Source: a virus (lineage: Duplodnaviria > Caudoviricetes). Taken from it: a stretch of DNA of 64,000 bases. The stretch spans positions 1 to 64,000 of IMG/VR virus record IMGVR_UViG_2850949226_000003; one strand, 5' to 3'. Each line of letters begins with the position of its first letter. Within the stretch, counting starts at the first letter, position 1. The position numbers and the translations under genes were made by a program. This document shows, piece by piece, positions 1,750 to 41,090 of the stretch. The notes under the pieces are model-generated. The model did no database searches, was not told where the DNA came from, and saw nothing but the letters and a program-made list of their open reading frames with translations.

Positions 1750-1763
1750 TCTGTAATAACAAA

Positions 1764-2958: not shown

Positions 2959-2971
2959 AAGATCAACTCCC

Positions 2972-13175: not shown

Positions 13176-13298
13176 TTAAGACCCGAACCTATCGGCTACT
13201 ATGTGTGTGTTATTGTTTGATTTGACGTAGTACGAAGCAGTTGTAATACCAACAGCACCTAATAAAAGAACGGCACAAATTAGTAATTTAGTTTTCAT
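13176..13298 (-). CDS. phr: Phr signalling peptide precursor (not in the ORF track)
   Basis: MKTKLLICAVLLLGAVGITTASYYVKSNNNTHIVADRFGS: signal peptide plus C-terminal (A)DRFGS; overlaps the rap stop codon. Confidence 0.9.
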   Translation of the reverse strand: MKTKLLICAVLLLGAVGITTASYYVKSNNNTHIVADRFGS

Positions 13299-14409: not shown

Positions 14410-14639
14410 CTATCCTCTTCCCTTCACTCAAGATTATAAAATTTTCAGAAAATTAAAACATCATTTGGAAGTTTCCTTTTTCTACATAGTAAATATTCTA
14501 CATAATTAACGGTCTTTTGACAACCATATATTGTTATTGATCTTGAAAAAAGTTCCTATATATAGATGGCGATGCTGTTCACTTGTTCGTTGAAATGTCC
14601 CAACCAATATCGTATCCTTTTAACGGGGGTTGAAAGCGA

Positions 14640-14813
14640 ATGGATTATGAAACTAAAGGATACGATACGACGATCGTATACGACTACAAAGAGTACCCGG
14701 ACGTTCATCACGGACGGTGTGATAACTGCGATTATACGCTGTTTAAAAGTTCAGTTAAAGACGGCGTTTTCTTGCGTGAGTGTCGTCGGTGCGGAATGAA
14801 AAAGAGTATATAA
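14640..14813 (+). CDS. 57-aa Zn-ribbon protein (not in the ORF track)
   Basis: RBS GGGGG; MDYETKGYD...GRCDNC...RECRRCGMKKSI; terminator follows at about 14822-14848. Confidence 0.75.
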   Translation: MDYETKGYDTTIVYDYKEYPDVHHGRCDNCDYTLFKSSVKDGVFLRECRRCGMKKSI

Positions 14814-14981
14814 GAACACACAAGCCCGACTCATGCTGGGCTTTTTTCTCTTCGTTTTGGGATTTTTGTCCTGATCAATATGATTCATTTTCATGGGTGT
14901 ACAGGATTTATTCACCAATTCATTTCCGTATAGTGGTAAACTCTATACTGATTGTAACCATTAGTATTAGAGGAGAATGCC

Positions 14982-16646: not shown

Positions 16647-16667
16647 AAATGGAAAGGGTGGGATTAT

Positions 16668-17129
16668 TTGGATATTAAGCCGGATTTGAAAAAAATATAT
16701 GAAAACCGTTTGTTGGAAAGTGAAGATGAAGTACAAGAGTTTGAAGAGTCCTTGGCAAAGGTTCTTGATTATGGAGACGTATCGGTTATCCCAGATTTAT
16801 GTAGGGCTTTCGATGACGATACTGAACAATTCGAGGTTATGTTTGGCTTAGTTCACGGAATTGAGAGGTTATACAAAAATAATATAGAAGAAGGACTAAC
16901 TTACATTGCTATAGCTGTTCCAGAGCTTCTTAGCCGAGCTGAAGAATGGGTTGAAATCTTACATTACAGGATTCTCAACCATCCTGAAGTAAGATTAGCT
17001 TATCGTAATGTGTTATCAAAACTTGATTCATCAATAGTTGTTAATATTAAAGATTTATTAACTGAAATAAAGAATGAGGACCCTGATATGTTTAGTGTGT
17101 CTGTAGATGAAGTAATTAGTGATATCTAA
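16668..17129 (+). CDS. Imm30-like immunity protein
   Basis: Directly downstream of the toxin; NRLL...FE...LC..FDD.TE...VMFGL.H.IE...RILNH. Confidence 0.8.
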   Translation: MDIKPDLKKIYENRLLESEDEVQEFEESLAKVLDYGDVSVIPDLCRAFDDDTEQFEVMFGLVHGIERLYKNNIEEGLTYIAIAVPELLSRAEEWVEILHYRILNHPEVRLAYRNVLSKLDSSIVVNIKDLLTEIKNEDPDMFSVSVDEVISDI

Positions 17130-17181
17130 ACCTTGGTTGGCTTTGTCCTTTCAAGGTTTTTGTTAAGGATGGGGGAAATTT

Positions 17182-17646
17182 TTGAATATCCAAACAGAGT
17201 TGAAAAAATTAAGAGATAATCGGTTACTAAGAAATTCTGATGAAATAAATGAATTCGAATCGGCCATCGCTAACATTGTTGAATTAGAGGATGCAGACCA
17301 TATTGAATACTTGTGTCAGGGATTCGATGATTCTACAGAAGAGGATGAAGTTATGTTTGGTTTGATCCACGCTATTGAATCATATGATAACAAATTTGAC
17401 GGAGAGATAACTTTGAAGAAGTTCGCTGAGGCTGTTCCAAGTATGTTGCCTCACCCTAAAGAATGGTCAAAAATTATGCATAAGAGAATTTTAAATCATG
17501 AACCTTCTAGGATCACTTATTCAAAGATCATCAAAGAACTTGATAAAGAAATCCAATCTAAAATCGTTGACCAGTTAGTTGAAATTAAAAACAAAAATCC
17601 TAAACGATTTGAAGCGAGCGCTAACCAAATTATCGAGCATTTATAA
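17182..17646 (+). CDS. Second, diverged Imm30-like immunity protein
   Basis: Shares NRLL, FDD.TE, VMFGL.H.IE, AVP, EW and RILNH with the preceding gene. Confidence 0.8.
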   Translation: MNIQTELKKLRDNRLLRNSDEINEFESAIANIVELEDADHIEYLCQGFDDSTEEDEVMFGLIHAIESYDNKFDGEITLKKFAEAVPSMLPHPKEWSKIMHKRILNHEPSRITYSKIIKELDKEIQSKIVDQLVEIKNKNPKRFEASANQIIEHL

Positions 17647-17660
17647 AGAGATTTGATTTT

Positions 17661-17686
17661 GCACCGATAAGACTATCGGTGTTTTT
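17661..17686 (+). terminator. Intrinsic terminator
   Basis: CACCGATA-AGAC-TATCGGTG-TTTTT. Confidence 0.8.
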
Positions 17687-17776
17687 ATTTTGTGAAAAAA
17701 GTTTCCTAAAAAACCCCAATATGGTAAAATGTTAAATGTTTAACTATCTCAAAAAATCTATGGAGGGATTTATCTA

Positions 17777-18640
17777 TTGGGTGAACTTTTAAACATTGTC
17801 TTAGGTATTATCGCATCTGTACTAACCATAATTAGTTTTAAATCGGCAAAAGAAGCTTCAACTGAAATAACGCAGACTGGTGATAACAATTCTGTATATA
17901 TTGATAATAAAAAAGTCAATATAAATAACTTTTTGATGCCTACCCAAAAACAAATTATTAAAATAGAGCGTATTATCGAACGCGTTGTAGTGCGTGAGAA
18001 AAGGGAGAACTCTGCTGATATCATTTGGATCATCATTGCTTTTGTATTATTTACTTTGTTTGGTGCGATCTATATGAGTTATTCTTTTCTTTTCGCTACA
18101 ATTCTATTAGCTTTATTTGTATTTCGGTTCATTTTATACATCCAGTATTCGAATGCGATAAGAATTTACTCTGATTCATATGATAAAAGTAAATTCATCA
18201 TCTGCTCCATTCAACGTCTAATTTTATTTTGTATTCTTCTCAGCCTAATGTTTTTTTCAGTTCCTCAAGAATTGCAGAAGGTTGTTGCTCATACTAAATT
18301 TGATTTTTATTCCTTGCTAATGAAAGGCGGCGGAACTTCTTTAGCGAATTGGGCTGACGGAGTAATTAAATACATCCGAAGTATCTGGAATACAACTCCT
18401 TTTTATTTCTTCTTGTTTAGAAGTGTCGGAGTAATCGGCCTTACTTCTGGAATATGGTATATAACAGGTAAAAGCGTCTTGCCGATATATTCACATAATA
18501 TTGAAAGATGGAAAGCTTTATTGTCGGAACTTTGTTTTTTTATTTTTATCGCTATTGTTTTTTTCGCACTCTATCCTTGGATATTCTTAGATACAAAAAA
18601 CGCTGTAGAACCCATAGTGATTGAATGGTTACGGAAATAA
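17777..18640 (+). CDS. Multi-pass membrane protein (moron)
   Basis: About 6 hydrophobic segments, low GC, own promoter region and terminator AAGCCCT-TTAG-AGGGCTT-T. Confidence 0.75.
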   Translation: MGELLNIVLGIIASVLTIISFKSAKEASTEITQTGDNNSVYIDNKKVNINNFLMPTQKQIIKIERIIERVVVREKRENSADIIWIIIAFVLFTLFGAIYMSYSFLFATILLALFVFRFILYIQYSNAIRIYSDSYDKSKFIICSIQRLILFCILLSLMFFSVPQELQKVVAHTKFDFYSLLMKGGGTSLANWADGVIKYIRSIWNTTPFYFFLFRSVGVIGLTSGIWYITGKSVLPIYSHNIERWKALLSELCFFIFIAIVFFALYPWIFLDTKNAVEPIVIEWLRK

Positions 18641-18704
18641 ACTATATAAGCCCTTTAGAGGGCTTTTTTTATTGTGATGAGAAGTTGAAGTGAGCACCAA
18701 TAAA

Positions 18705-18733
18705 TTGATTCTTTATTATAACTAAAATAAAAT
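18705..18733 (+). promoter_or_regulatory. sigA promoter with TTATAAC in the spacer
   Basis: TTGATT-17 bp-TAAAAT; a second GTTATAA next to the RBS. Confidence 0.65.
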
Positions 18734-18768
18734 TAAGTCGTAAAAACAGTTATAAGGAGGGCGTCTAA

Positions 18769-19014
18769 ATGGACGTGATGGAGTACATTTTTAAGAAAGC
18801 AATTATTGAGGGAGCGAGAAGCAACACTGAACAATTGGTCGAAAAATTTAAGGCGGGAGAAGAACTAACCAGAGAAGAGGTTGAACGTCTCCTGACAACT
18901 ACTGTTTGTGCATTAGGTATTATCCGGGAGGAAATCCTTGAGCCTGTTCGTGAAGAATTTGAAAAAGACCCGTTTTTTCAACCATTTAAAGATACAGATG
19001 GTCCATTGCATTAG
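18769..19014 (+). CDS. Hypothetical protein
   Basis: RBS AAGGAGG. Confidence 0.7.
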   Translation: MDVMEYIFKKAIIEGARSNTEQLVEKFKAGEELTREEVERLLTTTVCALGIIREEILEPVREEFEKDPFFQPFKDTDGPLH

Positions 19015-19078
19015 AGATGGCGAGAGGGCTTCGGTCCTCTTATAAATAAAAAGCCACGACCAGAAAGGATGAGAGAGT

Positions 19079-19267
19079 GTGGAAAATGGATTAGCTACTA
19101 CAATAAGTGAAATTTTAAATGCACTAAGTCCATTTATTATAGGTTACTTAATTTTTTCTGTAGTGTTATTTGTTTTCGTTTTTTCATTCATTATTTTTGT
19201 TGCCATTAAAGTGATAAAGGGGCATAGGGAGTTTGAGAAGCGGAGAAAAGAAAATGGTAGCGGTTAA
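19079..19267 (+). CDS. Small membrane protein
   Basis: Single long hydrophobic segment and basic tail. Confidence 0.65.
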   Translation: MENGLATTISEILNALSPFIIGYLIFSVVLFVFVFSFIIFVAIKVIKGHREFEKRRKENGSG

Positions 19268-19291
19268 AATGCCGTTCGGAAAGGACGAAAA

Positions 19292-19531
19292 ATGCAAAGA
19301 CATAAGCTGAAAATTTTGCCGGAGTATTTCGATTATGTTTGTACCGGCGAAAAATCTTTCGAGATAAGGAAAAACGATCGGGGTTTTAAGGTCGGTGATT
19401 TGCTGGAGCTTCACGAGTATATTCCCGAGAAAGATGAATTTACAGGACGGGTTGTAGTTCGTGAAGTAACGTATATGACTGACTACGCTCAAAAAGAAAA
19501 TTACGTCGTTATGGCTATTGATATAGCTTGA
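19292..19531 (+). CDS. ASCH/PUA domain protein (DUF3850)
   Basis: HKLKILPEYF..V..GEKSFEIRKNDRGFKVGD.L.L.E...FTGR signature. Confidence 0.88.
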   Translation: MQRHKLKILPEYFDYVCTGEKSFEIRKNDRGFKVGDLLELHEYIPEKDEFTGRVVVREVTYMTDYAQKENYVVMAIDIA

Positions 19532-19543
19532 CACGGGAAGGAG

Positions 19544-19741
19544 ATGGCGAAATTGACGGAAGAACAAGTGTATGAATTTAAGTCAACACTCGATTTTTTT
19601 CTCGAAAATATGGAACTCGTTGCTCACCAAGTCGAATTGAATGCAGTTTTAATGAGAAAAGCAAAAGATGCACTCATGAAAGCGGGTTTTACTGAAGAAC
19701 AGGCATTAGAAATCATAAAAGCAAGAGGGGCAATGTTGTAA
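19544..19741 (+). CDS. Hypothetical protein
   Basis: AGFTEEQALEI motif common in phage small proteins. Confidence 0.7.
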   Translation: MAKLTEEQVYEFKSTLDFFLENMELVAHQVELNAVLMRKAKDALMKAGFTEEQALEIIKARGAML

Positions 19742-19799
19742 TAAAAATCAATGGTTCAGAGAAGAAAAGGTGGAAAAACGGTGACTAAAGAGTTAATAA

Positions 19800-20057
19800 A
19801 TGTTGGTTTATATGGTGGTAAAAGCATATTCAGGAGGTAGAGGGATGAGAAAACCAATGGTGTTGAGCGAAGAAGAGGTATTGAACAGTGTAGGAACAAT
19901 GATGATAATGACTGGTGCAACGCGGTTGGTTGAACATGAAGGAATGACACCGCACGAAGCTTTACAACAGATGGAACGTGTAAAAAATTCGGTGTTTCAT
20001 GTGCTATCTGAAATCCATCGCGAAGTAAATCAAGCGGAAAAGGAGGTAGAGGAATGA
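19800..20057 (+). CDS. Hypothetical protein (start probably MRKPM)
   Basis: RBS GGAGG; translationally coupled to the next gene. Confidence 0.65.
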   Translation: MLVYMVVKAYSGGRGMRKPMVLSEEEVLNSVGTMMIMTGATRLVEHEGMTPHEALQQMERVKNSVFHVLSEIHREVNQAEKEVEE

Positions 20058-20374
20058 ATTATAAACTAAGTCCGAGACTTAAACGATATTTCGATGATAT
20101 TGAAATAAAGAAGATGATGAACAACAATATTTTTGAGTTTCAAAAGAAACGACAGGAATTTTTCAATTCAGAAATTAGAAGGGTGTTCGATCATTTCGGT
20201 TTAACGTTTGATGAAGTGAAGAAGCGCGCGAAGTTCGGAACCGATATAGACGGAAATCAGATTCTTTGGATTGACGATAAACAAGTTTTGACCTTTTCGA
20301 TGCCGGAGATTTCAGGCGCTCAAGTGATACAGCGGGTCAAGCGGCTTTATAAGGAGCGGCGGAATGATGCCTGA
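20054..20374 (+). CDS. Hypothetical protein
   Basis: ATGA overlap, RBS AAGGAGG. Confidence 0.7.
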   Translation: MNYKLSPRLKRYFDDIEIKKMMNNNIFEFQKKRQEFFNSEIRRVFDHFGLTFDEVKKRAKFGTDIDGNQILWIDDKQVLTFSMPEISGAQVIQRVKRLYKERRNDA

Positions 20375-20723
20375 AAAAATAATTGATGAAGTAAATTATT
20401 TAATGACTTTGACTGATGATGAATTAAACGAATTATTAATTAGTGAAAAATATAATAAAGCAAACTTGCGCGAGCTGGTAAGACGGACTTTGAAGGTTGC
20501 GAATGAGTATAAAAAAGCCTTTGAGTACGAGACAAGCGAAGAGAAAAAAGAAACTGATGAATCTTTAAAGCGTTATGACCGAATGGAGGCGGAAAACGAG
20601 CGGTTGAAGAAGGCGCTGAAATTAATCCAATCGAAGTCGGAGCTTCCCGAAGAACCAGTCGATTTAGTTCCGATTACTGAGCTATACGAAATAAATTTAC
20701 ACGCAAAGGAGGCGCTAAGATGA
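20364..20723 (+). CDS. Hypothetical coiled-coil protein
   Basis: RBS AAGGAG; EAENERLKKAL. Confidence 0.7.
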   Translation: MMPEKIIDEVNYLMTLTDDELNELLISEKYNKANLRELVRRTLKVANEYKKAFEYETSEEKKETDESLKRYDRMEAENERLKKALKLIQSKSELPEEPVDLVPITELYEINLHAKEALR

Positions 20724-20818
20724 GCGAAATTAAATAAAGCAAAGGAGTTGATGCTCTATGTAGCAATATGAGGATGTTTACTACAATTAAGAAAAAATCA
20801 AACAAAGGGGATTGAGAA

Positions 20819-21668
20819 ATGAAAGGTATTGCAAAACTGAATAATTTGTTCTCTAGGATTAAGTTTCTTCCGAAGACGGGAAATCGACTGAAGCAAACTT
20901 TTATTGAAGGGGGCAGAGTGTTGCAACCGACCAAAGCCACGACACTCTACCACCCGGCGCTTCCCAAGAGTGAGAAGCATACCAATTATATCATGTTTTC
21001 TCTCTTTTTTGCAATTCAGCTTTTACTATCGCCTGTCGTCCAAGCGGCTGATAAATACCAAAATTTCGCGGAATTACAGGCAAACGAAGACCCTGCAAAC
21101 TATAACATCGAGAGTGTAAGTCATGATCACTCTGTTCTTATATTCGCTCCGCATGGTGGAGGTATCGAAGGGGGAACAAGTGAAATTGCACGTCACTTGA
21201 GCGCAGGTTATTCGATGTATCTGTTTGAGGGACTAAAGTCTTCTGGAAACTTCGATTTACACATCACAAGTACAAATTTCGACGAACCCACCGCATTAAA
21301 AATGATCAGCAAACACCAATACGTCATATCTCTTCATGGTTATCGGGATAATAAAGAGCATGTCATTGTTGGTGGCTCTGACACCCTGAATGCGGCTCGC
21401 TTAACGGAGATTTTAAATGATGCAGGAATTTCAGCAGAACATAGAACAAGCGGCTCTCTAGCTGGAGTTGATCCGGGGGAACATTGCGAATAAGTGCATC
21501 ACAGGTAAAAGCATCCAGATCGAGATGAGCACACCGTTACGGAAATCCATGTTCGAAACGTTCACATTATCAGGAAGGTCTGGTTCTCAAAACGAAAGAT
21601 TTTATTTGTTCACTAATTTATTAACGACTTTCATCAAGGACACTTATGAAAGCGGGGTAAATGAGTAA
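20819..21668 (+). pseudogene. Poly-gamma-glutamate hydrolase (PghP/DUF867 family), frameshifted
   Basis: APHGGGIEGGTSE, LHITSTNFDEP, SLHG motifs; one extra G in CCGGGGGA (21475-21479) separates GVDP from NIANK...SIQIE in the 21468..21668 frame. Confidence 0.85.
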
Positions 21669-27215: not shown

Positions 27216-28046
27216 TTGATTGGTCAAGGCGTTCAGTTAGTAGTGATAAAAGGAGGATGCCTTGTGGGTGATAAGGTAATCAGAGCTTCGGACAATGAAG
27301 AAGTAAAATATGACATTATCGATTTTAAGAAACTCACAACGGTCATGAAAAGGTTTTTGGGTAGCAAAAAATCTGATCCGGAAGTAACGAAGTGGTATAA
27401 GGTAGAAGATGGTCTTCATTTTATGGCGACAACATTAGGGTCTGCGGTTTACATTCTTTTCAAAAACAAATATGCCGGTACTTTTAATAAAGCGACTGGA
27501 AAAGACTTCTTTGTGAAACCTTTATCTAACGGAAAACAAGAGGAAGTTGAAGCCATCCCTGAATTAGAAATTGTTACTGAAGGAAAGAAAAAAATTGAAA
27601 GACCTACAGGAAGGACACTTGAATATCCTGATGTAGTTGGTCTGTTTAATAGTTTTAATTTTAATGATTTTCATAAAGTTGAAATAGATGTAGATGACAC
27701 TGATGATTTTATTTCGGTTCATGAAGCGATGTCGAAAGCATCGAAGGTAGGCGGACCGCATAATACAGCCAAGATGAAAATTGAGAGTAATGAGCTATTA
27801 TTAAAACTTCATGATTCTCCGATTGATTTTGAATTCAAATACAAAATAAAAAGTGATAATCGATTTTGTTTTGGGGATTATCATTATGATTTTGATTTAA
27901 TGACAGCAATATTCAAATCGTTAAAGGACCTAAAACCTTACAAAATCGAAATGTATGTAAGAGATATTGACCATCCCATCCTATTTGTCGGTGAATCAAC
28001 TGACTATAACTTTAACTTTGCAATTCAAAGGATATTAGTTAGATAG
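27216..28046 (+). CDS. Hypothetical protein, possible divergent sliding clamp
   Basis: Start probably GTG near 27264 (RBS AAAGGAGG); EYPDV linker and C-terminal YDFDLM...FKSL...IEMY....HPILF resemble beta-clamp. Confidence 0.45.
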   Translation: MIGQGVQLVVIKGGCLVGDKVIRASDNEEVKYDIIDFKKLTTVMKRFLGSKKSDPEVTKWYKVEDGLHFMATTLGSAVYILFKNKYAGTFNKATGKDFFVKPLSNGKQEEVEAIPELEIVTEGKKKIERPTGRTLEYPDVVGLFNSFNFNDFHKVEIDVDDTDDFISVHEAMSKASKVGGPHNTAKMKIESNELLLKLHDSPIDFEFKYKIKSDNRFCFGDYHYDFDLMTAIFKSLKDLKPYKIEMYVRDIDHPILFVGESTDYNFNFAIQRILVR

Positions 28047-28052
28047 GAGAGT

Positions 28053-28544
28053 ATGATGAAAATGACACCGGGTGTAGGCGATTATGTCGAAGTGTTGGGG
28101 TGTTCTTATGGCGGCAGGGACATTTTTATCGGAAAGACTGGTGAAATTGTGGAGATCAACAAAGACCGTTCGCCAGCTATATATAAAGTGAGAGTTAGAT
28201 TTGAATGGATTAATCAAGTGTGGTGGTTTAAGTCATCCGAATTGAGGGTTCTTAAAAAAGGTTTGGAAACAATCCCAACTAAGTTGAATAGTCGTTATGT
28301 GGCAAAAGCTTTTTGGATTGGCCACAAGAAAATGATGGAAGAGAAAGTGAAACAATTAGAGGAAGATTGCAAAAAGGTCGGAAGAGAAATGTTGCTTGCT
28401 CTTTGTGATGGCAGTTTCAATATAGAGGACGCTATTTATTGGCACGAACAATGCAAAGAATTATTTGAGATGTACACCGGATACAAGGAGAAGTTAGAAA
28501 AAGCTAAAGGGGTAGTTGGTGCCGAAGATGAAAAACTCAACTAA
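28053..28544 (+). CDS. Hypothetical protein with an N-terminal KOW/SH3-like domain
   Basis: VGDYVEV...IGKTGEIVEI...VRF...WF.SSEL. Confidence 0.65.
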   Translation: MMKMTPGVGDYVEVLGCSYGGRDIFIGKTGEIVEINKDRSPAIYKVRVRFEWINQVWWFKSSELRVLKKGLETIPTKLNSRYVAKAFWIGHKKMMEEKVKQLEEDCKKVGREMLLALCDGSFNIEDAIYWHEQCKELFEMYTGYKEKLEKAKGVVGAEDEKLN

Positions 28545-29220
28545 GATGATGGAGCTATTCAAGAGTAAACCGATCTTTGAAGAGCTTGCGGAATTGAGGT
28601 TAAAAATCGCAACGACAGATGATTTAAAAATAAAGGGCGAATTGGAATTGTATGAAGATCGTATCCGTGAGTTCTCCGTTTCTTTATTGAAAAGGGTTAA
28701 AGCGAGAGAGAACGGGGCATTTGAAGAATTAATGAGTCTCAAGGATATGAAGAATTTTCTTCATTTTTACGCTTACCATATCAGGGATTACCATAAATTT
28801 AGGTACAGCAAACAAAACGTTCTCCACGAAATCAGATTTCAAATATTTTACCACGTAGTAAACAATTATCGCATTTATAATGAACCTCACGAAATCAGCC
28901 TATTAATCACAAGTATGAGGAACTGGATCAGACAGAAGGTTAGTGCCGCATTAAAAAACACATACAATCCGAAGGACGATGAGAAATTAGATCAAGTTTT
29001 TTTAGTAGGGGATGCGACGGATGATACAGAGGTTCTTGTGCGGGATCTAATTGACAGATACCTCGATAGAGAGGAAAAAATTGTTTTTGAGTTGAAATTC
29101 TTTGAAGAGAGAGGCTTCGTGGAAATCGGAAAATTCATAGGAGCTTCGAAAGATACCGCCCAAAGAAGATACAAAAAAGCTTTAAATAAATTGAGTAAAA
29201 TATTGTCGAAAGAGTTATAA
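28516..29220 (+). CDS. Phage sigma-70 family RNA polymerase sigma factor
   Basis: AFEEL region-2 start; C-terminal L.REEKIVFELKFFEE.GFVEIG..IG.SK.TA.RRYKKAL.KL region-4 HTH. Confidence 0.75.
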   Translation: MVPKMKNSTKMMELFKSKPIFEELAELRLKIATTDDLKIKGELELYEDRIREFSVSLLKRVKARENGAFEELMSLKDMKNFLHFYAYHIRDYHKFRYSKQNVLHEIRFQIFYHVVNNYRIYNEPHEISLLITSMRNWIRQKVSAALKNTYNPKDDEKLDQVFLVGDATDDTEVLVRDLIDRYLDREEKIVFELKFFEERGFVEIGKFIGASKDTAQRRYKKALNKLSKILSKEL

Positions 29221-29233
29221 GGAGGACGTATAA

Positions 29234-29731
29234 GTGCGATTAACTAAATTGTTCGAAATACAACGTAAATTAGATAGGCGTATTGTCGTGGAAAAGGGAC
29301 TTGAGCGGCAAGACCTCTTGTGGAATAAAATATTAGCTTTGCAAGTTGAATTGGCAGAATTGGCTCAAGAAGTACAGGACGAATGGAAGTTTTGGAAAAC
29401 AAACTTCAAAAGATGTTCCGGCAAAATATTAGAAGAGTATTGTGATTGTTTACATTTTGTTTTGAGCATTGGAATTGAACATGGATTCGATAAACATGCA
29501 GATGGATTGGTAATTGACTCTATTGAATGTCCGAATATGGTGTTCCAAATCTCCGAGCTGATGCAATGCAATTGGTACTTGTACGAGGAAGGAGATGACG
29601 GAGACTACCATGAAGGTTTTGAGCTGTTTTTAGGTCTAGGAAAAATGTTGGGGTTTACGTGGGAAGAAGTGGAGAAAGCATACTTAGAAAAGAATAAAAT
29701 CAACCACAAAAGACAAGATCAAGGATATTGA
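29234..29731 (+). CDS. dut: Dimeric (all-alpha) dUTPase
   Basis: LALQVELAELA, WKFWK, LEEYCDCLHFVLSIG, AY..KN..N..RQ..GY. Confidence 0.88.
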   Translation: MRLTKLFEIQRKLDRRIVVEKGLERQDLLWNKILALQVELAELAQEVQDEWKFWKTNFKRCSGKILEEYCDCLHFVLSIGIEHGFDKHADGLVIDSIECPNMVFQISELMQCNWYLYEEGDDGDYHEGFELFLGLGKMLGFTWEEVEKAYLEKNKINHKRQDQGY

Positions 29732-29756
29732 TAAAGATTAACCTTCTAACTTTTTA

Positions 29757-29785
29757 TTGAAAACACGTTTATATCCAGTTATAAT
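29757..29785 (+). promoter_or_regulatory. sigA promoter overlapped by GTTATAA sites
   Basis: TTGAAA-17 bp-TATAAT; GTTATAA at 29778 and 29788. Confidence 0.7.
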
Positions 29786-29829
29786 CGGTTATAAAGTGAG
29801 TAAGACGATAAAAGGTTAGGAGGTTCTTT

Positions 29830-30474
29830 ATGTCTGAAAAGCATAACAATCTTCAGGGCGAAGTATGGACCGATGATGACGATATTCAATTAGCTGAAAC
29901 GGTGTTGAGGAGGGTTAGACAAGGAGATTCCGTAATTGATGCTTGCCGCGAGTTTGAAGAAGCCACAAAAGGCAGACGAACATCATCAGCTTCTAAATTC
30001 AGATGGCACACAAAATTAAAAGAACGATATGCTGGCGCTTACGAATTAGCCAGAAGGGAAGGGAAGAAAACAAGAGATTATAAACGCCGAAAAGTAAACC
30101 AAGGCGAACGCTATCAAGATTTGTTGGAAAACGTTTTGGACAAGGATAGTGACAGAGAGATCACTATTGATGATATTTTGATTTTAGTCAAAAAATACAA
30201 AGAACAAAGTGAAGACAAAGTTAGTGAATATGAACGTTATGAAAAAGAAACCGATAAACTCCGCAGAGAAATCGAAAAGCTCAAAAAAGAGTTGAAAGAT
30301 GAACGTTTAGAAAAGAAACAAATGAAAGAAGCTTTAATTGAGGTTGATCGCAACTACAAAAAACTATTGGATGCTCTCAAAGTTCTGAAGGAAGCCGGAA
30401 TTCAAATCAATGTTCCCGAACCTGAATCATTCGAATATATAGTCAATAAAGATGGTACTGTAGAAAAAATGTAA
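29830..30474 (+). CDS. RsfA family transcriptional regulator
   Basis: W...DD..LAETVLR.VR.G and RT..A..FRW Myb-like N-terminus plus coiled coil. Confidence 0.85.
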   Translation: MSEKHNNLQGEVWTDDDDIQLAETVLRRVRQGDSVIDACREFEEATKGRRTSSASKFRWHTKLKERYAGAYELARREGKKTRDYKRRKVNQGERYQDLLENVLDKDSDREITIDDILILVKKYKEQSEDKVSEYERYEKETDKLRREIEKLKKELKDERLEKKQMKEALIEVDRNYKKLLDALKVLKEAGIQINVPEPESFEYIVNKDGTVEKM

Positions 30475-30536
30475 ATATACGCTCCGACGCAAAATCGCCT
30501 ATTTTTGGGCGGTTTTTTTGTTTTCTTTTAAAAACA

Positions 30537-30569
30537 TGAGATCAGATACGTTTTAGAGGTACTAATGTT
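30537..30569 (+). promoter_or_regulatory. Putative phage late promoter
   Basis: TGAGA-18 bp-TACTAATGTT, just after a terminator. Confidence 0.55.
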
Positions 30570-30575
30570 TCATGA

Positions 30576-30881
30576 ATGCAAAAGAAAAGGGAGGATATTC
30601 GGGTGAGTCGTATCAATAAAACCAAAGAAGATAAATTCAAAGACTCGTTAAAGTCATGGGGGCCTGAAGAAACTCGTCCTTTTATTCGTGAAAAAGAGGA
30701 CCTCGTGAGAGATGCGTTTGATTATAAGAGAAAGTACGACAAAATCAAAAGAGAAAGAGATGAGGTGGCGAAAATTACAGGTGATTCTTTAGAGAACATC
30801 AATATTTGGTCATCTCGTGGATTGGAAAGTCAATCAGGACCTATAAAGGACTGGACACCGATAAAGAAGGAGGAAGAATGA
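30576..30881 (+). CDS. Hypothetical protein
   Basis: RBS GGGAGG suggests GTG near 30603. Confidence 0.65.
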   Translation: MQKKREDIRVSRINKTKEDKFKDSLKSWGPEETRPFIREKEDLVRDAFDYKRKYDKIKRERDEVAKITGDSLENINIWSSRGLESQSGPIKDWTPIKKEEE

Positions 30882-31438
30882 TGGAATGGTTAAAATGGCA
30901 AAGTAAAATCCTTGAACAAGATGATCTGGATATCTTTGAAGTCATTGCTACTAGAGGAGCGGGGAAAACCACCTTCTCTTTAGGCTGGGTGACTAAAGAC
31001 GCGGATATTTCTATTTTTATTACAAAGAATGCTTCGATGATCAGAAAAAAACTCAAAGAAAATATCAAGACTTTAGATTTTAATTTAAATGAATTTCATG
31101 TAATATCCAACTTAAAGCAATTAAGAAAGCTAAATACAAACCCTAAAAAGAATATCAGGATAGTTGTTGATGAATACTTTTATCAGCCAGAAATCACTTT
31201 AGATTCGCTTGATCGTATCTTAGGACACAAAAAATATAAAGCTTTATTTATAGGAACAAGAAGAACAAAAGAAGACAAATTTAAAATTCCTTTTAGTAAA
31301 CAATATATAGTCGATATTATTCAACTCATAAGCGATCAAGTGATTTCGCCGGCACAACTCATTGACATTCTGAATAAAGGAATGTTGGATTTAGAGCAAT
31401 TTTATATCGAATTCGGTGCTCCTTTCGAAGCGAATTAG
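30806..31438 (+). CDS. Stand-alone terminase-like P-loop ATPase domain
   Basis: Start probably 30878; WQ motif, ATRGAGKT Walker A, IVVDE Walker B, FIGT. Confidence 0.6.
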   Translation: MVISWIGKSIRTYKGLDTDKEGGRMMEWLKWQSKILEQDDLDIFEVIATRGAGKTTFSLGWVTKDADISIFITKNASMIRKKLKENIKTLDFNLNEFHVISNLKQLRKLNTNPKKNIRIVVDEYFYQPEITLDSLDRILGHKKYKALFIGTRRTKEDKFKIPFSKQYIVDIIQLISDQVISPAQLIDILNKGMLDLEQFYIEFGAPFEAN

Positions 31439-31460
31439 TCATAAGGAGTTGGTATAATAG

Positions 31461-32234
31461 ATGGATTTAATTTACAAGAAAGGTACTGTCATTGGGAAGC
31501 CGGATGAATTGAGGGTATATCTTTTGAATGATCTTCATTTCGGTTCTGAAGCTGTTGATTATGAGCTTTGGGAAAGGATCAAACAAGACATTAGAGAAAA
31601 TAGGCACAGGTCAAGGATTTTAATTAATGGTGATATCATCGAAGGAGTAACCAGACAATCTAAAGGCGATATCTACAAGCAACGAATGTCACCAAAGGAA
31701 CAGGTCGATTTTGCAGTTAGTGAATTTTATGAATTTCGTGATTTGATCGATGCTGTAAACAGTGGTAATCACGATCAAAGAATCAAAAACGAAACAAGCT
31801 TTGATCCTATCGAGACGTTTTGCAAGGATTTGGGTATACTTGATAAGTACCTGGAGTATGAAGGTATAATCGCTTATAGCTGGAATAAGTGTTTTTATTC
31901 TATTCAAATGCACCACGGATCGGGTGGAGCTTCGACTACTGCTGGTATCATTAACAAAATGAAAAAGATGAGAAAATCCAATTGTACTGTGACCTATATC
32001 GCTCATCACCACAGGGAAGTTGCTGAACCTTTTATCGAATATTACATTGACCCATTCAATCATAAGTTGCACAAACGAAAGCATTGGTTCATTTGTGGTA
32101 ACACAATCACAAAACATGCGGAATACGCAAAGAAATTCGCATATGAAGAGAAATTCCCCTCCCAAGCTGTATTGTTGTTGTCGGGGAATAGGAAGAACAG
32201 GTCGGTTGAAGTTGAGTGGATAAGAAGCATGTAA
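31461..32234 (+). CDS. Calcineurin-like metallophosphoesterase
   Basis: DLHFG, NGDIIE, GNHD, HHG, AHHH motifs. Confidence 0.88.
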   Translation: MDLIYKKGTVIGKPDELRVYLLNDLHFGSEAVDYELWERIKQDIRENRHRSRILINGDIIEGVTRQSKGDIYKQRMSPKEQVDFAVSEFYEFRDLIDAVNSGNHDQRIKNETSFDPIETFCKDLGILDKYLEYEGIIAYSWNKCFYSIQMHHGSGGASTTAGIINKMKKMRKSNCTVTYIAHHHREVAEPFIEYYIDPFNHKLHKRKHWFICGNTITKHAEYAKKFAYEEKFPSQAVLLLSGNRKNRSVEVEWIRSM

Positions 32235-32295
32235 AGTTAGGTTATAAAGAAGGGCTAGATAAAAGAACACCGTTCAAAAAAGAACGGTGCTTTTT

Positions 32296-32607
32296 TTATT
32301 TCTCTCTTGTTCTGAAGTCACATGTCCAGTCGTGAAGTAAACCGATATCTACATAATCCTCCAAAGCCTCCACGCTGTTGCTTTCTAACTCAATCCGGTG
32401 AAGAAATACATTGCATTCGTTTCGTTGATAATTAATATGTACTTCTCCTACTTCTATTTCATATGGGTTCTTATATAAGGAATCCGCAATGAAATCTCCC
32501 TTATGAGGTATAACATTTGATTCGAACTCTTTGTGAAGCGTTCTAAAATCTCGCATACTATCCTTCAAACAAACCTGTTGATGAAGCCTGATTTTCATGT
32601 CCTTCAC
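32296..32607 (-). CDS. Hypothetical protein (opposite-strand moron)
   Basis: RBS AAGGAGGTG; shared terminator at about 32266-32296. Confidence 0.7.
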   Translation of the reverse strand: MKDMKIRLHQQVCLKDSMRDFRTLHKEFESNVIPHKGDFIADSLYKNPYEIEVGEVHINYQRNECNVFLHRIELESNSVEALEDYVDIGLLHDWTCDFRTREK

Positions 32608-32675
32608 CTCCTTTTTTAGTGTTCAAACTAATTATATATTCCTTAAAACTTGAAGTATATTAAAACATTCAAAAG

Positions 32676-32709
32676 TGAGAAAATATTTCTTTTTTCTCAT
32701 ACTACTGTT
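32676..32709 (+). promoter_or_regulatory. Putative phage late promoter
   Basis: TGAGAAA...CATACTACTGTT (19 bp between TGAGA and TACTA). Confidence 0.6.
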
Positions 32710-32711
32710 CA

Positions 32712-33050
32712 TGAGGACTTTTAGTTAAGGGATATCCAATCCTCTAACTTTCCAATATATAAGTGGAAAGTTGATATTTAAGAGAAGGAAAGGCAGTGGG
32801 GAACTGAAGCAAAGGGGCTGTCTGCTCGGATGATGTGGGTTTAAGCCGAGGGATTTAGAAGACCAAGGTCCTACCTCCTGGCATGGGTAATGTGAAAACG
32901 GATCAAAAAACGTCTCGCGGAGTCCGTTGTCGTAATAACGGATAAGGGTTGCCACCTGACAAGAGCACGGAGATAGAGACAATGACCGCGTTTAATTGGT
33001 TTTGCGGTTAATGCCACTTGCTACGAAAAAATCGTGGCGGTGGCTTTTTT
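32712..33050 (+). ncRNA. Candidate structured non-coding RNA or leader upstream of terS
   Basis: No credible ORF, GC-richer than its flanks, at least six stems, ends in a terminator with U6. Confidence 0.55.
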
Positions 33051-33076
33051 AGTTTGTTGCGAAAGGAGCAATTAAC

Positions 33077-33754
33077 ATGGCAAAAAACGAGATCAAATCT
33101 TATGTTACATCTGATGGGCAAGTTTTTAAAACAACGTTAGATATAGGTGACGTTGATCCAAAATTATATACACTTAACCATTTGGAGATGGCGGAAAAAA
33201 GAGTGATAAAAGGCAGTAACAAAAACTTAAAGACGGCTTTAGGTAGTACAAGAGCGTTAGCAAAGAAAAATCAAACTACAGCCAAATCTCTTTCTGACGC
33301 TCAATTTGATGAGTATGGACTCGATCCGTCTATTTACACCAAGAAACAAATCGATTTTGTTCACCAAAAGATCAGAGAATTCGAAGCGCAATACGAGTCT
33401 TCTACGCCTTTTGAAAAAGAGACAATTGGCATGATGGCGGTAACTTTACTAAAAATTACTGAAATTAAAGCGAAAATGATTTCATCTGATAGTAACAACT
33501 ACGTGAAACAGTTAAAGGATTTACGCGAGATGTTTTCTAAAATGGCCGAAGATTTGAAGCTTAGACCAAAAGACAAGAAAGAGGAAGACAGGAGCAAGAA
33601 CAGAAACTCACTTACAGAAATGGTGCGGAGATACGAAGCGCGGAAGAGAAGTCAACGCAAGGAAACTAGCGATAAAACAAAAGCAATGGAAGAGATGCTT
33701 TCTAAAGTAAGGGTAAACTCGCTGGACGGAAAATACGCCGGAGCTGAAGAATAA
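33077..33754 (+). CDS. Putative terminase small subunit
   Basis: Helical, TAATG-coupled to terL; LKLRP.D motif. Confidence 0.65.
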   Translation: MAKNEIKSYVTSDGQVFKTTLDIGDVDPKLYTLNHLEMAEKRVIKGSNKNLKTALGSTRALAKKNQTTAKSLSDAQFDEYGLDPSIYTKKQIDFVHQKIREFEAQYESSTPFEKETIGMMAVTLLKITEIKAKMISSDSNNYVKQLKDLREMFSKMAEDLKLRPKDKKEEDRSKNRNSLTEMVRRYEARKRSQRKETSDKTKAMEEMLSKVRVNSLDGKYAGAEE

Positions 33755-35340
33755 TGGATTGGTACAGCGAATGGATTACTGAAGAAGAAATATACGAAAT
33801 AATGAACCTCCCTCATGACGAGTTTGAAGAGTACATCTTTGAAATGATCGAGTTTTATCGCGAAAATCCTGTAGAAGCTGTATACGACCTATTAGGTCTT
33901 GGTTTAACTGAATACCAAAAAGTGATGCTAATTGAATCCTGGAATTCAAAAAACATTTATTGGTGTACAAGCCGTGGTGCTGGGAAATCATTCATGATGG
34001 CTATTCTTGCTTGTTTAAAGATGTTGCTCTATCCAGATGAAGCTATACTCATGTTCGGCCCTTCTTATCGTCAATCATTAATGCTCTACGACAAGATCGT
34101 AAGTGAAGTTTACAATAAGTCCTTTTCTTTTAAACACGAAGTCATGGAAATGCCTAGGGGATCGATGGGTGCCAAGATTCAACTCAAGAATTTGTCTTAT
34201 GCGAAATTCTTGCCTATAGGCGACGGGGGATCAATTCGTGGTGAGCGTACAACTTTCATCTTTTTGGATGAGGACGCCCAACAAGACAAAACGTTAATTG
34301 ATCGGGTAATTTTACCGATGGCTGTATCTAACTTAAAATACGATCCTGATAATCCTGAAGAGGGATTTCAACCGACTATCGTTCGTGCCACATCTGCATA
34401 CTTTCAATTCAACCATAGCTATAAGACTTTCCAAATTCATTTGCACAGAATGGCATTCGATGAGGATTACTACTGCGCTGTAGTCCCTTATACAATCCCA
34501 TTGGAAGCGAAACTCTACAATGAAAAGTTCGTAGCCACACAGAAGCGGGATATGTCTAATGATGACTTTGAAATGGAAATGGGTTGCAAATGGATAACCG
34601 GCAACGAAAACGCGTTTATTAGTATGAAATTGTGGGATGAGAACGTTAAATATGACGACACGCTAGAACCCCTTTTCTGTGGCGAAGGCAATAAGGAGTA
34701 TGTATTGTTTGCTGATATCGCAAGGTCGGAAGGCGGAGATAACGCATCATTAAAACTATGTGAAATTCGTGGACATCGACTCGCCGTTGTCAGAGAAAAA
34801 GCTTTAAATGGTCAGCCGTATCAAGTGATCCGAGATGAAATAAGAAAATTTCTAATTAAGTTCAATGTTATTGACCTTTGGATGGATAAATTAGGAGGCG
34901 GTGAAGCTGTGGCCGACTTACTTGCTGAAGATTGGATGGACTTCGAAACTGGAGCTAAACACCCTCCTATTCTTTCTGTTGACAGCGGCAGAGGGGATGG
35001 GATCAAATTAATCACATTTATTGTAGCGGATACTGCCCTTAACCACAGACTAGGACACCTGGCAAAGAAGCATATTGAAAAAGGTCACTTCGTTTTCCCA
35101 AGACTCATGGACAGACACCCGGAAAGAGAGATGGAAATGGCGTACTTAGACCTCATTATGGTCAAGAAAGAAGTAACCAATATACAAGCTGTGCCGGCAG
35201 GAAATTTCCATAAATTCGTGCCTACCAAGGGGTCAAAGCTTCGAAAAGACCGTTGGACAACCTTCTGTTATGCCGCGCTTTATATCGAAGAAAAATTGAT
35301 AAAAAAAGAAGAGGACGAACTATTGATTGAAATCTTCTGA
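33754..35340 (+). CDS. terL: Terminase large subunit
   Basis: YQ motif, SRGAGKS, IRGER..FIFLDE, ATSA; nuclease ADIA...D...KDR. Confidence 0.92.
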   Translation: MDWYSEWITEEEIYEIMNLPHDEFEEYIFEMIEFYRENPVEAVYDLLGLGLTEYQKVMLIESWNSKNIYWCTSRGAGKSFMMAILACLKMLLYPDEAILMFGPSYRQSLMLYDKIVSEVYNKSFSFKHEVMEMPRGSMGAKIQLKNLSYAKFLPIGDGGSIRGERTTFIFLDEDAQQDKTLIDRVILPMAVSNLKYDPDNPEEGFQPTIVRATSAYFQFNHSYKTFQIHLHRMAFDEDYYCAVVPYTIPLEAKLYNEKFVATQKRDMSNDDFEMEMGCKWITGNENAFISMKLWDENVKYDDTLEPLFCGEGNKEYVLFADIARSEGGDNASLKLCEIRGHRLAVVREKALNGQPYQVIRDEIRKFLIKFNVIDLWMDKLGGGEAVADLLAEDWMDFETGAKHPPILSVDSGRGDGIKLITFIVADTALNHRLGHLAKKHIEKGHFVFPRLMDRHPEREMEMAYLDLIMVKKEVTNIQAVPAGNFHKFVPTKGSKLRKDRWTTFCYAALYIEEKLIKKEEDELLIEIF

Positions 35341-35426
35341 TGCGAAATCGTTTATTATAACCATTTTGAGAAAACAAGCACTTTAAACCGTATAATGGTA
35401 ATAGAAAGCGGTTATGAAGGGGGGTT

Positions 35427-36791
35427 TTGTTTTTGAGTGACCAGGAACTTGCGGAGGGCGCTTATAATCCAAAAGAATTTGGCGAAGAGGTTGCTTCCGT
35501 GAAAAACGAAGGAATAGAACGGGTCAGTTCGTTATCTAACATATCAGGGTATGAAGCGAACAAACTTTTAATGAATCCACAGGGGAATTTCCGGAAGATC
35601 GTTCAATTGAGTCATTATTATACCGAAAAGATAGGTATTCTTAAAAGTGCCGTTCGCGTTTATGTGACTCTCACAAATGGAGAGATTCAACTTGAAGGTG
35701 GCACAAAGAAAAATAAAAATTTCCTGGAAGAATTCGTTGAGAAAACTAATCTCAATAAAACTCTCCGACAATCGATACCGGATTTATATAAGGCCGGTAA
35801 TTTTATTTGGTATAGAGAATTAGAGGGCAGAGAGTCAGTTTGGATTCATCAATTAAACCCTATTGATGTCGATATAAAGGGACACAAACGGGATAGACCT
35901 GTCGCTGATTTAAGGACAAATAATGATCCTGCTACTCTCCCTGATGATTTAAAGCAAGGTGAGGACGGGAAATATCATTTACCTCCAAATCAAACTTATC
36001 ACTGTTCAGTTGAACGAGAAGGGTATTTACGCTACGGGATGCCTTTTACAACTTCAGCCTTCGAGCCTATACAACACATTCAAGAATTGATTGATATGGA
36101 GAAAGACTCTATCAAAAGCGTAATCGAATCACTCATTATCATTACATTGGGCGATGAGAAAAGGCCGGCAACCCAAGAACAGATTGATAAATTAAAACAA
36201 CATGTCAAAAATCTCAAAAGTACCTCAAGACTTGTAGGTAATCACACCTTAAAGGCTGAGGTTATCGAGAAAAATATCGAGGTATTCAACAAAGAAAAGT
36301 TTGAAGTGCCGATGAGAATGTTAATGCAATCCATCGGAATTACTCCTAGTATTTTTACCGGCGAAGGTTCTTATGCTACTGCTTCAGCAGGAATGCAGTC
36401 AGCTAAAAAAACGATTGAGTTAATTAGACTGGAGATCGAAGACACTTTAAAGCAATTATTTGCTGATGTCGCAAAAGAAAGAGGATTGGACCCTAAGAAA
36501 AACCCTACAGTGTCGTTAGGGAAACTTGACCTTACAGAAGAAAAGGTCCAACACGCCATCCTCCGCGACCTTTATCTGGACGGAATCATCAGTGCTGAAA
36601 CATATGCGCTTGCTCATGGTCATATCCTTGAACACGAGCAGACCAAGACGAAAGAAGAGAAGAAGTACGACATTCAACCTCGTAAAATGTCAAGCACTCT
36701 GGGAAATGATGGTCCTGGCGCGCCAGAGAAGATTGATTCTAAACCGGATAATAACCCTAATCAAGATAAAAAGCCTTCAGGTGATAATTAA
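35427..36791 (+). CDS. Portal protein
   Basis: Follows terL; 454 aa; YGMP and GSYATA motifs. Confidence 0.8.
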   Translation: MFLSDQELAEGAYNPKEFGEEVASVKNEGIERVSSLSNISGYEANKLLMNPQGNFRKIVQLSHYYTEKIGILKSAVRVYVTLTNGEIQLEGGTKKNKNFLEEFVEKTNLNKTLRQSIPDLYKAGNFIWYRELEGRESVWIHQLNPIDVDIKGHKRDRPVADLRTNNDPATLPDDLKQGEDGKYHLPPNQTYHCSVEREGYLRYGMPFTTSAFEPIQHIQELIDMEKDSIKSVIESLIIITLGDEKRPATQEQIDKLKQHVKNLKSTSRLVGNHTLKAEVIEKNIEVFNKEKFEVPMRMLMQSIGITPSIFTGEGSYATASAGMQSAKKTIELIRLEIEDTLKQLFADVAKERGLDPKKNPTVSLGKLDLTEEKVQHAILRDLYLDGIISAETYALAHGHILEHEQTKTKEEKKYDIQPRKMSSTLGNDGPGAPEKIDSKPDNNPNQDKKPSGDN

Positions 36792-36807
36792 AGGAGGTGA
36801 ATGGTTA

Positions 36808-37857
36808 TTGTTGAGAAAGGATATTGACCTTTACGAATTTGCGAGCAAAAAAGCAAAAGAGTTAGAAAGATTGACTATAACGAAATATGAATTATCCGAA
36901 GATAAAGATCATATTGATGTTACTTATATTTTGGCATCTTCGGTCGAGAATGCGAATGGTGCTTTGATCACCAAAGAGGAAATGGAGTCGGCAAAAGATA
37001 GTATCATTCACCAACCTTTGATCATTGTTCCTGATTGGGATGATTTGCCGACAGGCCACAGTTTAGAGGAATTCCCTAAATTAAGTTGGGGAGCACTTAT
37101 CATTGGGACACACATTTCTTCGGATATCGTTCAGGATGGTGATATTTATCATTTAACGGCAAAAGCGAGGGTCTGGAAAATTAGATATCCAGAGGTTGCC
37201 GCAAACATCATCCGGCTTCACGAAGCAGGTACATTGAAGTTTTCAATGGAATCGCGCTATACAAGTCAAACGATAGAGGGGGCAACCAGGACATTACACG
37301 GAGTAAGATTTATCGGCTCTGCGGTTGTAGATGATCCTGCTAACCCGTTCAGTTACGCTTTGGAAGTAGCGCGCAAAGAAAAAACAAAGGAGGAAAAAGT
37401 CGTGAATTTCGAACAAGCTATGCAAAAACTCAAAGAACTTGATGCTGACGCATATTTAATTGTTAATAAAGAATTTACCACACTGAATGATCAAATCGGT
37501 GATAAAGAGAAATTGGAGACAGCATCTAATGAGTTGAAGAACTCTCTTAAAACAGCAAATGAAAAGATCGATGAACTTACGAATGAACTCAATTCCATGA
37601 AGGAAGAAAAGGCACAAACTGAACTTGCTCAAAAACAAGAAGCTCGCTTCAATGCTATTTCCGAGTTTATTGAGTTTGCAGAAGATGAAATTGAAAGCAA
37701 AAAAGAGGCTTTCGGGAAAATGGATGAAGACACTTTTGCTCTCGTTCTTGAAACAGCAAAACGCAATAAAAAAGAAAAGAAAGAAAGCAATGTAGAATTT
37801 GCTTCCGACACTAAATTAGAAGTGCAAAATGGTTTCTTAGATGGTCTTGGAGAATAA
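36808..37857 (+). CDS. Prohead protease / scaffold fusion
   Basis: RBS AAAGGAGGTG, TTG start; N.NG, H, FSMES and V.DPA protease motifs plus C-terminal coiled coil. Confidence 0.8.
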   Translation: MLRKDIDLYEFASKKAKELERLTITKYELSEDKDHIDVTYILASSVENANGALITKEEMESAKDSIIHQPLIIVPDWDDLPTGHSLEEFPKLSWGALIIGTHISSDIVQDGDIYHLTAKARVWKIRYPEVAANIIRLHEAGTLKFSMESRYTSQTIEGATRTLHGVRFIGSAVVDDPANPFSYALEVARKEKTKEEKVVNFEQAMQKLKELDADAYLIVNKEFTTLNDQIGDKEKLETASNELKNSLKTANEKIDELTNELNSMKEEKAQTELAQKQEARFNAISEFIEFAEDEIESKKEAFGKMDEDTFALVLETAKRNKKEKKESNVEFASDTKLEVQNGFLDGLGE

Positions 37858-39256: not shown

Positions 39257-39328
39257 TCTCTAACCAAAACGGGGAGTTTTTCTCCCCATTAGTTTTAAAA
39301 TAAAGTAATGAAAAGGAGAAGGTAAGGG

Positions 39329-41049: not shown

Positions 41050-41065
41050 AAATAAATTTAGGGGG

Positions 41066-41090
41066 AAGGGCTATCGCTCTTCCTCTTTTT
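41066..41090 (+). terminator. Intrinsic terminator
   Basis: GGGGGAAGGGC-TATC-GCTCTTCCTC-TTTTT. Confidence 0.7.

Follow-up and report, generated by a model that had tools for sequence, protein, structure and literature searches.

The DNA considered here is a 64,000-nucleotide stretch (the window) that forms part of a 78,281-base provirus record. Its leader region matches 'plasmid' pBL027-1 of Bacillus licheniformis SRCM100027 (NZ_CP021678.1) at 100% identity, the sole match in the plasmid collection. NZ_CP021678.1 opens with the chromosomal genes trmL and prkA, followed by a serine and a tyrosine recombinase, and for this reason looks like an integrated prophage or chromosome fragment rather than a plasmid. 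The prophage start in the window (positions 1-3000) holds a serine recombinase and a tyrosine integrase, and the record annotation places accessory cargo at 13288-21493 (a poly-gamma-glutamate hydrolase, a RapH-like protein, and an LXG polymorphic toxin accompanied by two Imm30 immunity genes). The large terminase (terL) protein is 37-38% identical to those of Basilisk, PBC4/pW4 and Slash/Staley/Stahl/Stills, all ~80-kb Bacillus siphophages, and of 'Microcystis phage MaeS'; the terS-like protein is 31-33% identical to its homologues in the same set. MaeS was deposited as a cyanophage, and its terminase genes are nearest those of Bacillus phages. A sigma-like factor (gene at 28516-29220), a dUTPase and a regulator (gene at 29830-30474) follow one another at 28516-30474, the order described for Basilisk-like phages in the relevant part of PMC6145125, where their kinship with B. 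licheniformis prophages is also noted. The source is taken to be a temperate B. licheniformis siphophage, distant kin of the Basilisk- and Slash-like phages.

The leader occupies a 469-nt gap between a divergent minus-strand small gene (32296-32607, phrog_17183) and the terS-like gene. On the far side of the small gene, a bidirectional terminator at 32266-32291 separates it from a metallophosphoesterase gene. The features of the gap and of the genes that follow are listed below; L127, L128 and L129 denote the leaders of relatives.

32676..32699, + strand: A/T-rich hairpin, where the block common to the relatives starts in the alignment
32698..32717, + strand: conserved promoter-like box, CATACTACTG then TTCATGAGGA, common to the window, L127, L128 and L129
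32745..32773, + strand: 10-bp hairpin found in the window only, in the unalignable spacer between box and module
32787..32851, + strand: conserved RNA module of ~65 nt, with two hairpins (H1 and H2) and a purine-rich 5' tail, GGAAAGG
32792-32797 with 32816-32822, + strand: H1, whose loop of ~19-20 nt has two GGGG runs
32825-32829 with 32846-32850, + strand: H2, whose loop carries GGATGATG..GGGTTTA
32852..33012, + strand: lineage-specific filler, with stems 32912/32976, 32923/32937 and 32984/33003 and a second GCCACC
33013..33050, + strand: intrinsic terminator, a 12-pair interrupted stem (GCCAC 33013 / GTGGC 33040) followed by T6 (33045-33050)
33062..33079, + strand: ribosome site AAAGGAG and terS start, the ATG lying at 33077, 26 nt past the T run
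33077-33754, + strand: terS-like gene (phrog_16146), first gene of the packaging/head operon
33754-35340, + strand: large terminase gene (terL), with the portal gene next

A preliminary description had read this gap, from the letters of the window, as a structured RNA with a series of stems and a terminator close to terS. The elements it named all lie where it put them: the stem arms AACTTTCCA (32746) and TGGAAAGTT (32764), AGGCAG (32791) and CTGTCT (32818), CTCGG (32825) and CCGAG (32846), GTCTC (32912) and GAGAC (32976), TCCGTT (32923) and AACGGA (32937), and GACCGCG (32984) and TGCGGTT (33003), as well as the second GCCACC (32951), the terminator and the 26-nt gap to terS. The segment is also non-coding, as had been claimed: 32712-33017 has no + strand ORF of at least 30 aa, and at a limit of at least 20 aa there are three 20-aa frames without a usable ribosome site. 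One of these frames, at 32771-32833, was considered as a leader peptide and rejected, since it starts with TTG without a spaced ribosome site and the relatives have other starts and frame-shifting 1-nt indels. A coding function of the module was rejected on its indels of 1 and 2 nt and its non-conserved start codon, and a minus-strand ORF of 85 aa was set aside because neither Pfam nor PHROG matches it and L127 and L128 do not preserve it. The G+C content is 0.43-0.50 over 32725-33099, against 0.29-0.33 just upstream and 0.34-0.39 downstream.

The segment belongs to no catalogued RNA family, again in agreement with the preliminary description. Rfam 15 gives no matches at the gathering score in the window and none at E<=10 in 32500-33200; on L127 and L128 it gives sub-threshold chance matches only (STnc170, 30.5 bits against a threshold of 80, and BcKCsr2, 28 against 40). 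ARAGORN finds no tRNA or tmRNA gene in the window or in L127, L128 and L129. Likeness to a tRNA, a K-turn, CsrA/GGA motifs and a G-quadruplex were each considered by eye and dropped, the conserved features being missing. Folding of the whole 339 nt is not beyond chance (z -1.45; 8 of 100 shuffles as good). The hairpin at 32745-32773 does fold beyond chance (-10.2 kcal/mol, z -3.34, 1 of 200 shuffles as good). Four RNA-library runs, which may contain DNA, have the region as assembled contigs that reveal neither transcript ends nor strand nor level; the full 4 kb is covered by three of these contigs, and one run yields fragments. One fragmentary contig has an extra A in the A run at 32904, and two runs of another organism show C>T at 33601, within terS.

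The strongest single structure in the leader is the terminator, which folds at -20 kcal/mol (z -5.8), with 0 of 200 shuffles folding as well. Every base of its arms is identical in the window, L127 and L128, the loop differs, and identity overall is 82%. The distance from its T run to the terS ribosome site is 11 nt, which leaves no room for a promoter; polymerases bound for terS must therefore read through the terminator, as the preliminary description had proposed for terminase expression. Terminators in this position recur among the relatives: six of the eight lineages examined (window, L127, L128, Slash, Basilisk and MaeS) have an intrinsic one ~20-36 nt 5' of the terS homologue, and pW4 and L129 lack it. 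The Slash terminator was annotated by that phage's authors. Further strong + strand terminator-like hairpins are seen within the late operon of the window, at 39271-39287, directly after the major capsid gene, and at 41060-41087.

At the other end of the leader, the A/T-rich hairpin has an equivalent in L127 and L128, where the hairpin with its T run closes an upstream + strand gene. In the window, L127, L128 and L129, a TAYTAC-type box (compare 32698-32707) comes after the T-rich hairpin, and looser look-alikes of the box occur in Slash and MaeS. The box is a candidate promoter by its sequence, perhaps for the phage's own sigma-like factor. The late promoter that had been placed here fares unevenly: the box is conserved, but a search 5' of the module gave no + strand site of the sigma-A type. 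The idea that the box recurs as a late promoter was rejected, as it is single-copy in the window; its short degenerate form has 32 matches where 27.5 are expected and is not enriched. Among 13 neighbouring ORFs (27216-37857), a scan with Pfam and PHROGs recognised the sigma-like factor and a 'transcriptional regulator' (phrog_16084) and no member of the Q family; no antiterminator protein was recognised near the leader. A 163-aa protein (28053-28544, + strand), just 5' of the sigma-like gene, carries near its N terminus a small stretch that resembles SH3/KOW. It was tried as a NusG-like factor and rejected, as the KOW match is N-terminal only and below the cut-off (E 0.013) and the protein falls in no PHROG family.

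The terS family to which this locus belongs is small, with 16 protein clusters, one of them named from Priestia megaterium. Leader DNA was compared among the window, L127, L128 and L131 (~81% identical terS), which amount to three distinct variants, and L129 (57% terS identity) was added as the nearest outgroup. A further 13 terS homologues, 55-82% identical, are represented as proteins. L127 and L128 come from IMG/VR contigs (L001 and L130 are the L127 contig, L002 and L132 the L128 contig). The module of L131 is identical to that of L128, and the leader differs by one spacer base. Pattern scans of IMG/VR for more leaders returned the same two contigs and chance matches, and a metagenome scan returned the same two, the contig of L129 and one contig with a module identical to that of L128. 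Searched with the terS profile, a collection with one genome per prokaryote species yielded no homologue, a core-pattern scan of that collection gave no real match among the at least 120 stretches listed, and blastn against 50,697 phage records gave no match.

Comparison of the window with L127 and L128 divides the leader sharply. The upstream hairpin and box are 74% identical and the module is 74% identical, against 72-73% for terS DNA, while the spacer between box and module (39-44%) and the stretch between module and terminator (14-40%) are unalignable. Distances vary accordingly: box and module are about 89, 57 and 76 nt apart in the three variants, and between module and terminator the window has 161 nt, L127 has 255 nt and L128 has 24 nt, with the module 5' of the terminator in all three. 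By alignment, three islands (box, module and terminator) are held at coding-like identity inside DNA that is otherwise replaced. A discrete conserved structured RNA of ~340 nt, as first envisaged, is not what the relatives keep; the conserved part is ~65 nt on the 5' side together with the terminator, and the central ~160 nt are lineage-specific. L129 has neither module nor terminator. Its non-homologous leader has, at L129:2220-2430, five or six copies of a TAGG..CGGTAAC-like repeat without a terminator, a candidate protein-binding array that could be a pac site or a regulator site.

The module keeps its two hairpins in the relatives. The stems 32791/32818 and 32825/32846, proposed from the window alone, stay paired there through double changes. 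In H1, two of the six pairs are changed on both sides (G-C to A-U and C-G to U-A), all 18 of 18 cells are paired, and one pair alternates between G-U and G-C among the variants. In H2, one of the five pairs is changed on both sides (U-A to C-G); at its outermost pair L127 has a mismatch and the window a gap. Together, H1 and H2 have three double changes in 11 pairs across three sequences. The three indels miss the stems (loop 1 and the linker have one of 1 nt each, loop 2 one of 2 nt), and the large loops, with UGGGGA...GGGG and GGAUGAUG..GGGUUUA, hardly vary. The + strand is taken to be the RNA, since the G-U pairs would be C-A on the opposite strand. Covariation is not significant by shuffles, with 62 of 500 for H1 and 158 of 500 for H2, because only three distinct variants are available. 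In a simulation that spread as many substitutions as were observed randomly across the module, at least as many double changes with no more broken pairs arose with P 0.0008 for the window versus L127, 0.0002 for the window versus L128 and 0.01 for L127 versus L128; the pairwise comparisons are non-independent and the null model naive, so that these values are taken as moderate support.

The stability of the module is unremarkable. The fold of 32785-32856 has a z of 0.05, and the three variants (0.05, -0.65 and -0.50) fold no better than shuffled sequences. The model of H1 and H2 is the minimum-energy fold in L128 only; for the window and L127 it is 2.5-2.9 kcal/mol less favourable than the best fold. 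RNAalifold, given a MAFFT alignment slightly out of phase, recovers H2 with an inner U-G-A/U-U-A extension, and H1 is distorted. A closing helix of 4-5 bp (in the window 4 bp, 32786-32789 with 32869-32872) can be drawn by eye in all three variants and would make the module a possible three-way junction; its outer pair is A-U, G-U and C-G in the three, and it is in the minimum-energy fold in L128 only.

The module has one copy in the 78-kb record and a narrow known range. The covariance model R1 detected no second module in the window, in the record as a whole or in the opening 50 kb of NZ_CP021678.1, and no module in the Slash, Basilisk, pW4, MaeS and L129 loci, all other matches having E>=0.09. 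Short words common to the module and the MaeS and Basilisk leaders (GAAGCAAAGG, GTGGGGA, GGATGATGG and AACTTTCCA) were discarded as being at chance level (blastn-short all-against-all, E 0.06-5), and there are no repeats inside the module. No description of the leader or the module was found in the literature searched. The 65-nt module is new in this sense, having no Rfam 15 match and no literature description found, and it is known from three variants.

What lies between module and terminator differs from phage to phage. In the window it is the filler, of which the part at 32862-33010 has a fold z of -0.64, not beyond chance. In L128 the filler is replaced by 24 nt, and in L127 by 255 nt with a Tad2-like ORF. 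This ORF (L127:2212-2430, + strand; 72 aa, with a GGAGG ribosome site) lies between the module and the terminator and matches the Thoeris anti-defence Tad2-like domain PF11195 over its full length, at E 0.0024 and 18.8 bits, below the cut-off of 25. In the more distant phages other cargo stands before the terminator: an amidase ORF in Slash, gp30 in Basilisk and a tRNA-Ser(GCT) in MaeS. The MaeS tRNA gene (MT362618.1, L271:1024-1112, + strand) is unannotated and ends 14 nt before a 14-pair terminator, which itself lies ~30 nt before the terS homologue within a 570-nt gene-free leader. Separately, Basilisk and pW4 share an 83-nt block that is 99% identical (L255:553-635 and L270:633-715) in a gene-free diverged region 3' of tRNA genes; in Basilisk it overlaps the 54-aa minus-strand 'gp29', and it may be another RNA element. 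The general picture that emerges is probably one of a modular layout: a box, a ~65-nt module, exchangeable filler or cargo, and a strong terminator abutting the terS ribosome site.

How might such a leader work? Transcription that reaches terS would have to cross the terminator at 33013-33050, and the nearest conserved upstream element from which it could begin is the box. The reading we favour, if tentatively, is that the packaging/late operon is transcribed with this segment as its leader, and that the module helps polymerase across the terminator. The module in the nascent RNA would then be a cis signal that allows read-through. It might act alone on RNA polymerase, in the manner of the put, EAR, conAn2 and canT RNAs, or alternatively be a docking site for a phage late protein, as lambda nut is for N. 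Polymerases that are not resistant would end transcription at 33050, and the short leader transcript set free would be comparable to the 6S RNA of lambda. The variable distances from the module to the terminator and to the box fit a position-independent RNA signal, and do not fit a DNA site of fixed spacing or a riboswitch.

The sequence of promoter, short terminated leader and late genes is a known theme of the lambda type. In the lambda late leader, the PR' promoter is followed by a 194-nt 6S RNA and the tR' terminator, through which Q makes polymerase read. As in PR'-6S-tR', a strong terminator here stands before the first late gene with no promoter after it, so that the late genes can be reached by read-through only, and the terminated product, we propose, would be a discrete small RNA like 6S. 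The element recognised by Q is DNA at the promoter, namely a Q-binding element and a pause site at fixed spacing. Unlike at PR', the conserved element here lies 57-89 nt past the box, at a spacing that varies, and appears to behave as a folded RNA; a Q homologue was not recognised among the 13 neighbouring ORFs; and the first late genes are those of terminase, whereas in lambda they are for lysis. Lambda has both nutL and nutR. Like the boxA-boxB signal of N/nut, the module would be a short signal in the RNA, close to where an operon begins, through which a phage protein could be brought to the polymerase, but there is no N-like protein, no small hairpin of the boxB type, and a single module copy in the record.

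Other likenesses are found among RNAs that act in cis on the polymerase. EAR is itself an Rfam family. As with put of phage HK022, EAR, and conAn2 and canT of Bacillota mobile elements, the candidate would be a folded leader RNA lying 5' of terminators at variable distance, although it has no sequence or model similarity to any of them (no Rfam match at E<=10). In the Bacillota, the precedents for antiterminator RNAs that work in cis are EAR, conAn2 of pLS20 and canT of Tn916, according to the relevant portions of PMC11658703 and PMC8191782. The same portions describe a G+C-rich stretch and a stem-loop as essential to conAn2, which acts without protein over short distances; the G+C-rich composition of the module agrees with this need. 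In size it differs from conAn2 (260-600 bp) and canT (341-452 nt), as given in those portions of PMC11658703 and PMC8191782: the module has 65 nt, short stems and large conserved loops. The likeness to moron and tRNA cargo is one of place, the MaeS tRNA-Ser, the Slash amidase and the L127 Tad2-like ORF occupying the same slot directly 5' of the terS-abutting terminator, but the module, unlike the cargo of the relatives, is neither a tRNA (ARAGORN) nor coding.

That shared slot is the basis of the main rival, which sees in box, module and terminator the promoter, gene and terminator of a moron, a stand-alone cassette whose small RNA would act in trans, for example as a sponge, a decoy or a counter-defence RNA; the terminator would be its 3' end, leaky or otherwise overcome on the way to terS. 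This reading is somewhat unlikely, though it has to be taken seriously. The slot is filled by other cargo in MaeS, Slash, Basilisk and L127, the presence of a terS-proximal terminator in six of eight lineages implies that the terminator is not module-dependent, and the module and terminator of L128 would make a compact RNA (137 nt folded, z -2.2). Against it, since no promoter belongs to terS itself, the cassette would not be transcriptionally independent of the late operon, and in both of two cases the module remains 5' of the inserted cargo. A plainer account, which we regard as improbable, gives the segment no specific RNA function: it would be an ordinary 5' untranslated leader with a leaky terminator that sets the terminase level, the module being kept by recent ancestry. 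That there are only three variants, with a thermodynamic stability no better than chance, speaks for such an account; it is harder to square with flanks scrambled or replaced on both sides of a module that has kept coding-like identity, whose changes include compensatory ones and whose indels spare the stems.

Two further readings give the island a different mode of action. In several phages, including SPP1 and P22, pac sites lie in or just before terS, and a recognition site could be common to phages with 81% identical terS; the island might by this token be bound or cut by the small terminase as a pac or cos site, or be the operator of some late regulator, acting as DNA and not as RNA. The CGGTAAC-like repeats of the equivalent L129 leader lend this some colour. 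The substitutions in the module nevertheless keep two hairpins, including G-U pairs valid only in + strand RNA, there are no repeats within the module, and its spacing to box and terS is variable. In Basilisk, moreover, base one is set at a short exact terminal repeat, as stated in the legend to Fig. 8 of PMC5000459, and this repeat is 11.7 kb from the terS homologue. A DNA-level site is on these grounds decidedly improbable. A riboswitch or attenuator, with the module as a ligand- or protein-sensing aptamer that chooses between the terminator and an antiterminator helix, is very improbable indeed, despite an order of G+C-rich folded RNA, terminator and gene that is riboswitch-like and the ability of L128 to form a three-way junction 24 nt before its terminator. 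The 24, 161 or 255 nt between module and terminator are unrelated in sequence and in L127 hold an ORF. The second GCCACC (32951), which had been suggested to pair with the 3' arm of the terminator and so to gate terminase synthesis, has no counterpart in L127 or L128. No conserved alternative pairing between module and terminator was found by eye, and Rfam gives no match at E<=10.

A role of the module in read-through in cis is favoured over these readings because its structure appears to be conserved, the module stays 5' of any insert, its distances are variable, and L129 lacks module and terminator together. Other observations count against antitermination. Several relatives have the terminator without the module, and read-through in Slash, Basilisk and MaeS thus cannot depend on it; there is no second copy, no partner protein is recognised and the fold is unremarkable. 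If the signal were unconditional, moreover, the terminator would be pointless for transcripts begun at the box. The bolder form of the proposal, that the module is a new and very small class of cis-acting antiterminator that, by itself or together with a phage late protein, makes polymerase resistant to the terS-proximal and later terminators of a 30-kb late operon, is put forward as an unlikely but definite possibility.

How the late genes for packaging and head are switched on in the large temperate Bacillus phages of the Basilisk/Slash lineage is little understood, and the locus offers a compact testable unit (box, 65-nt module and terminator) in a prophage of B. licheniformis used in food fermentation. 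Should the module prove to be a stand-alone small RNA, a slot also used by a tRNA and a Tad2-like gene would be a site for accessory or counter-defence cargo. As an antiterminator RNA, it would add a minimal member to a class of few known cases (put, EAR, conAn2 and canT) and might serve as a portable read-through part for Bacillus engineering. If it does represent a new antiterminator class, no earlier example would be on record from the late operon of a phage of Gram-positive bacteria, and the slot after the module would be a protected landing site for cargo such as the Tad2-like counter-defence gene.
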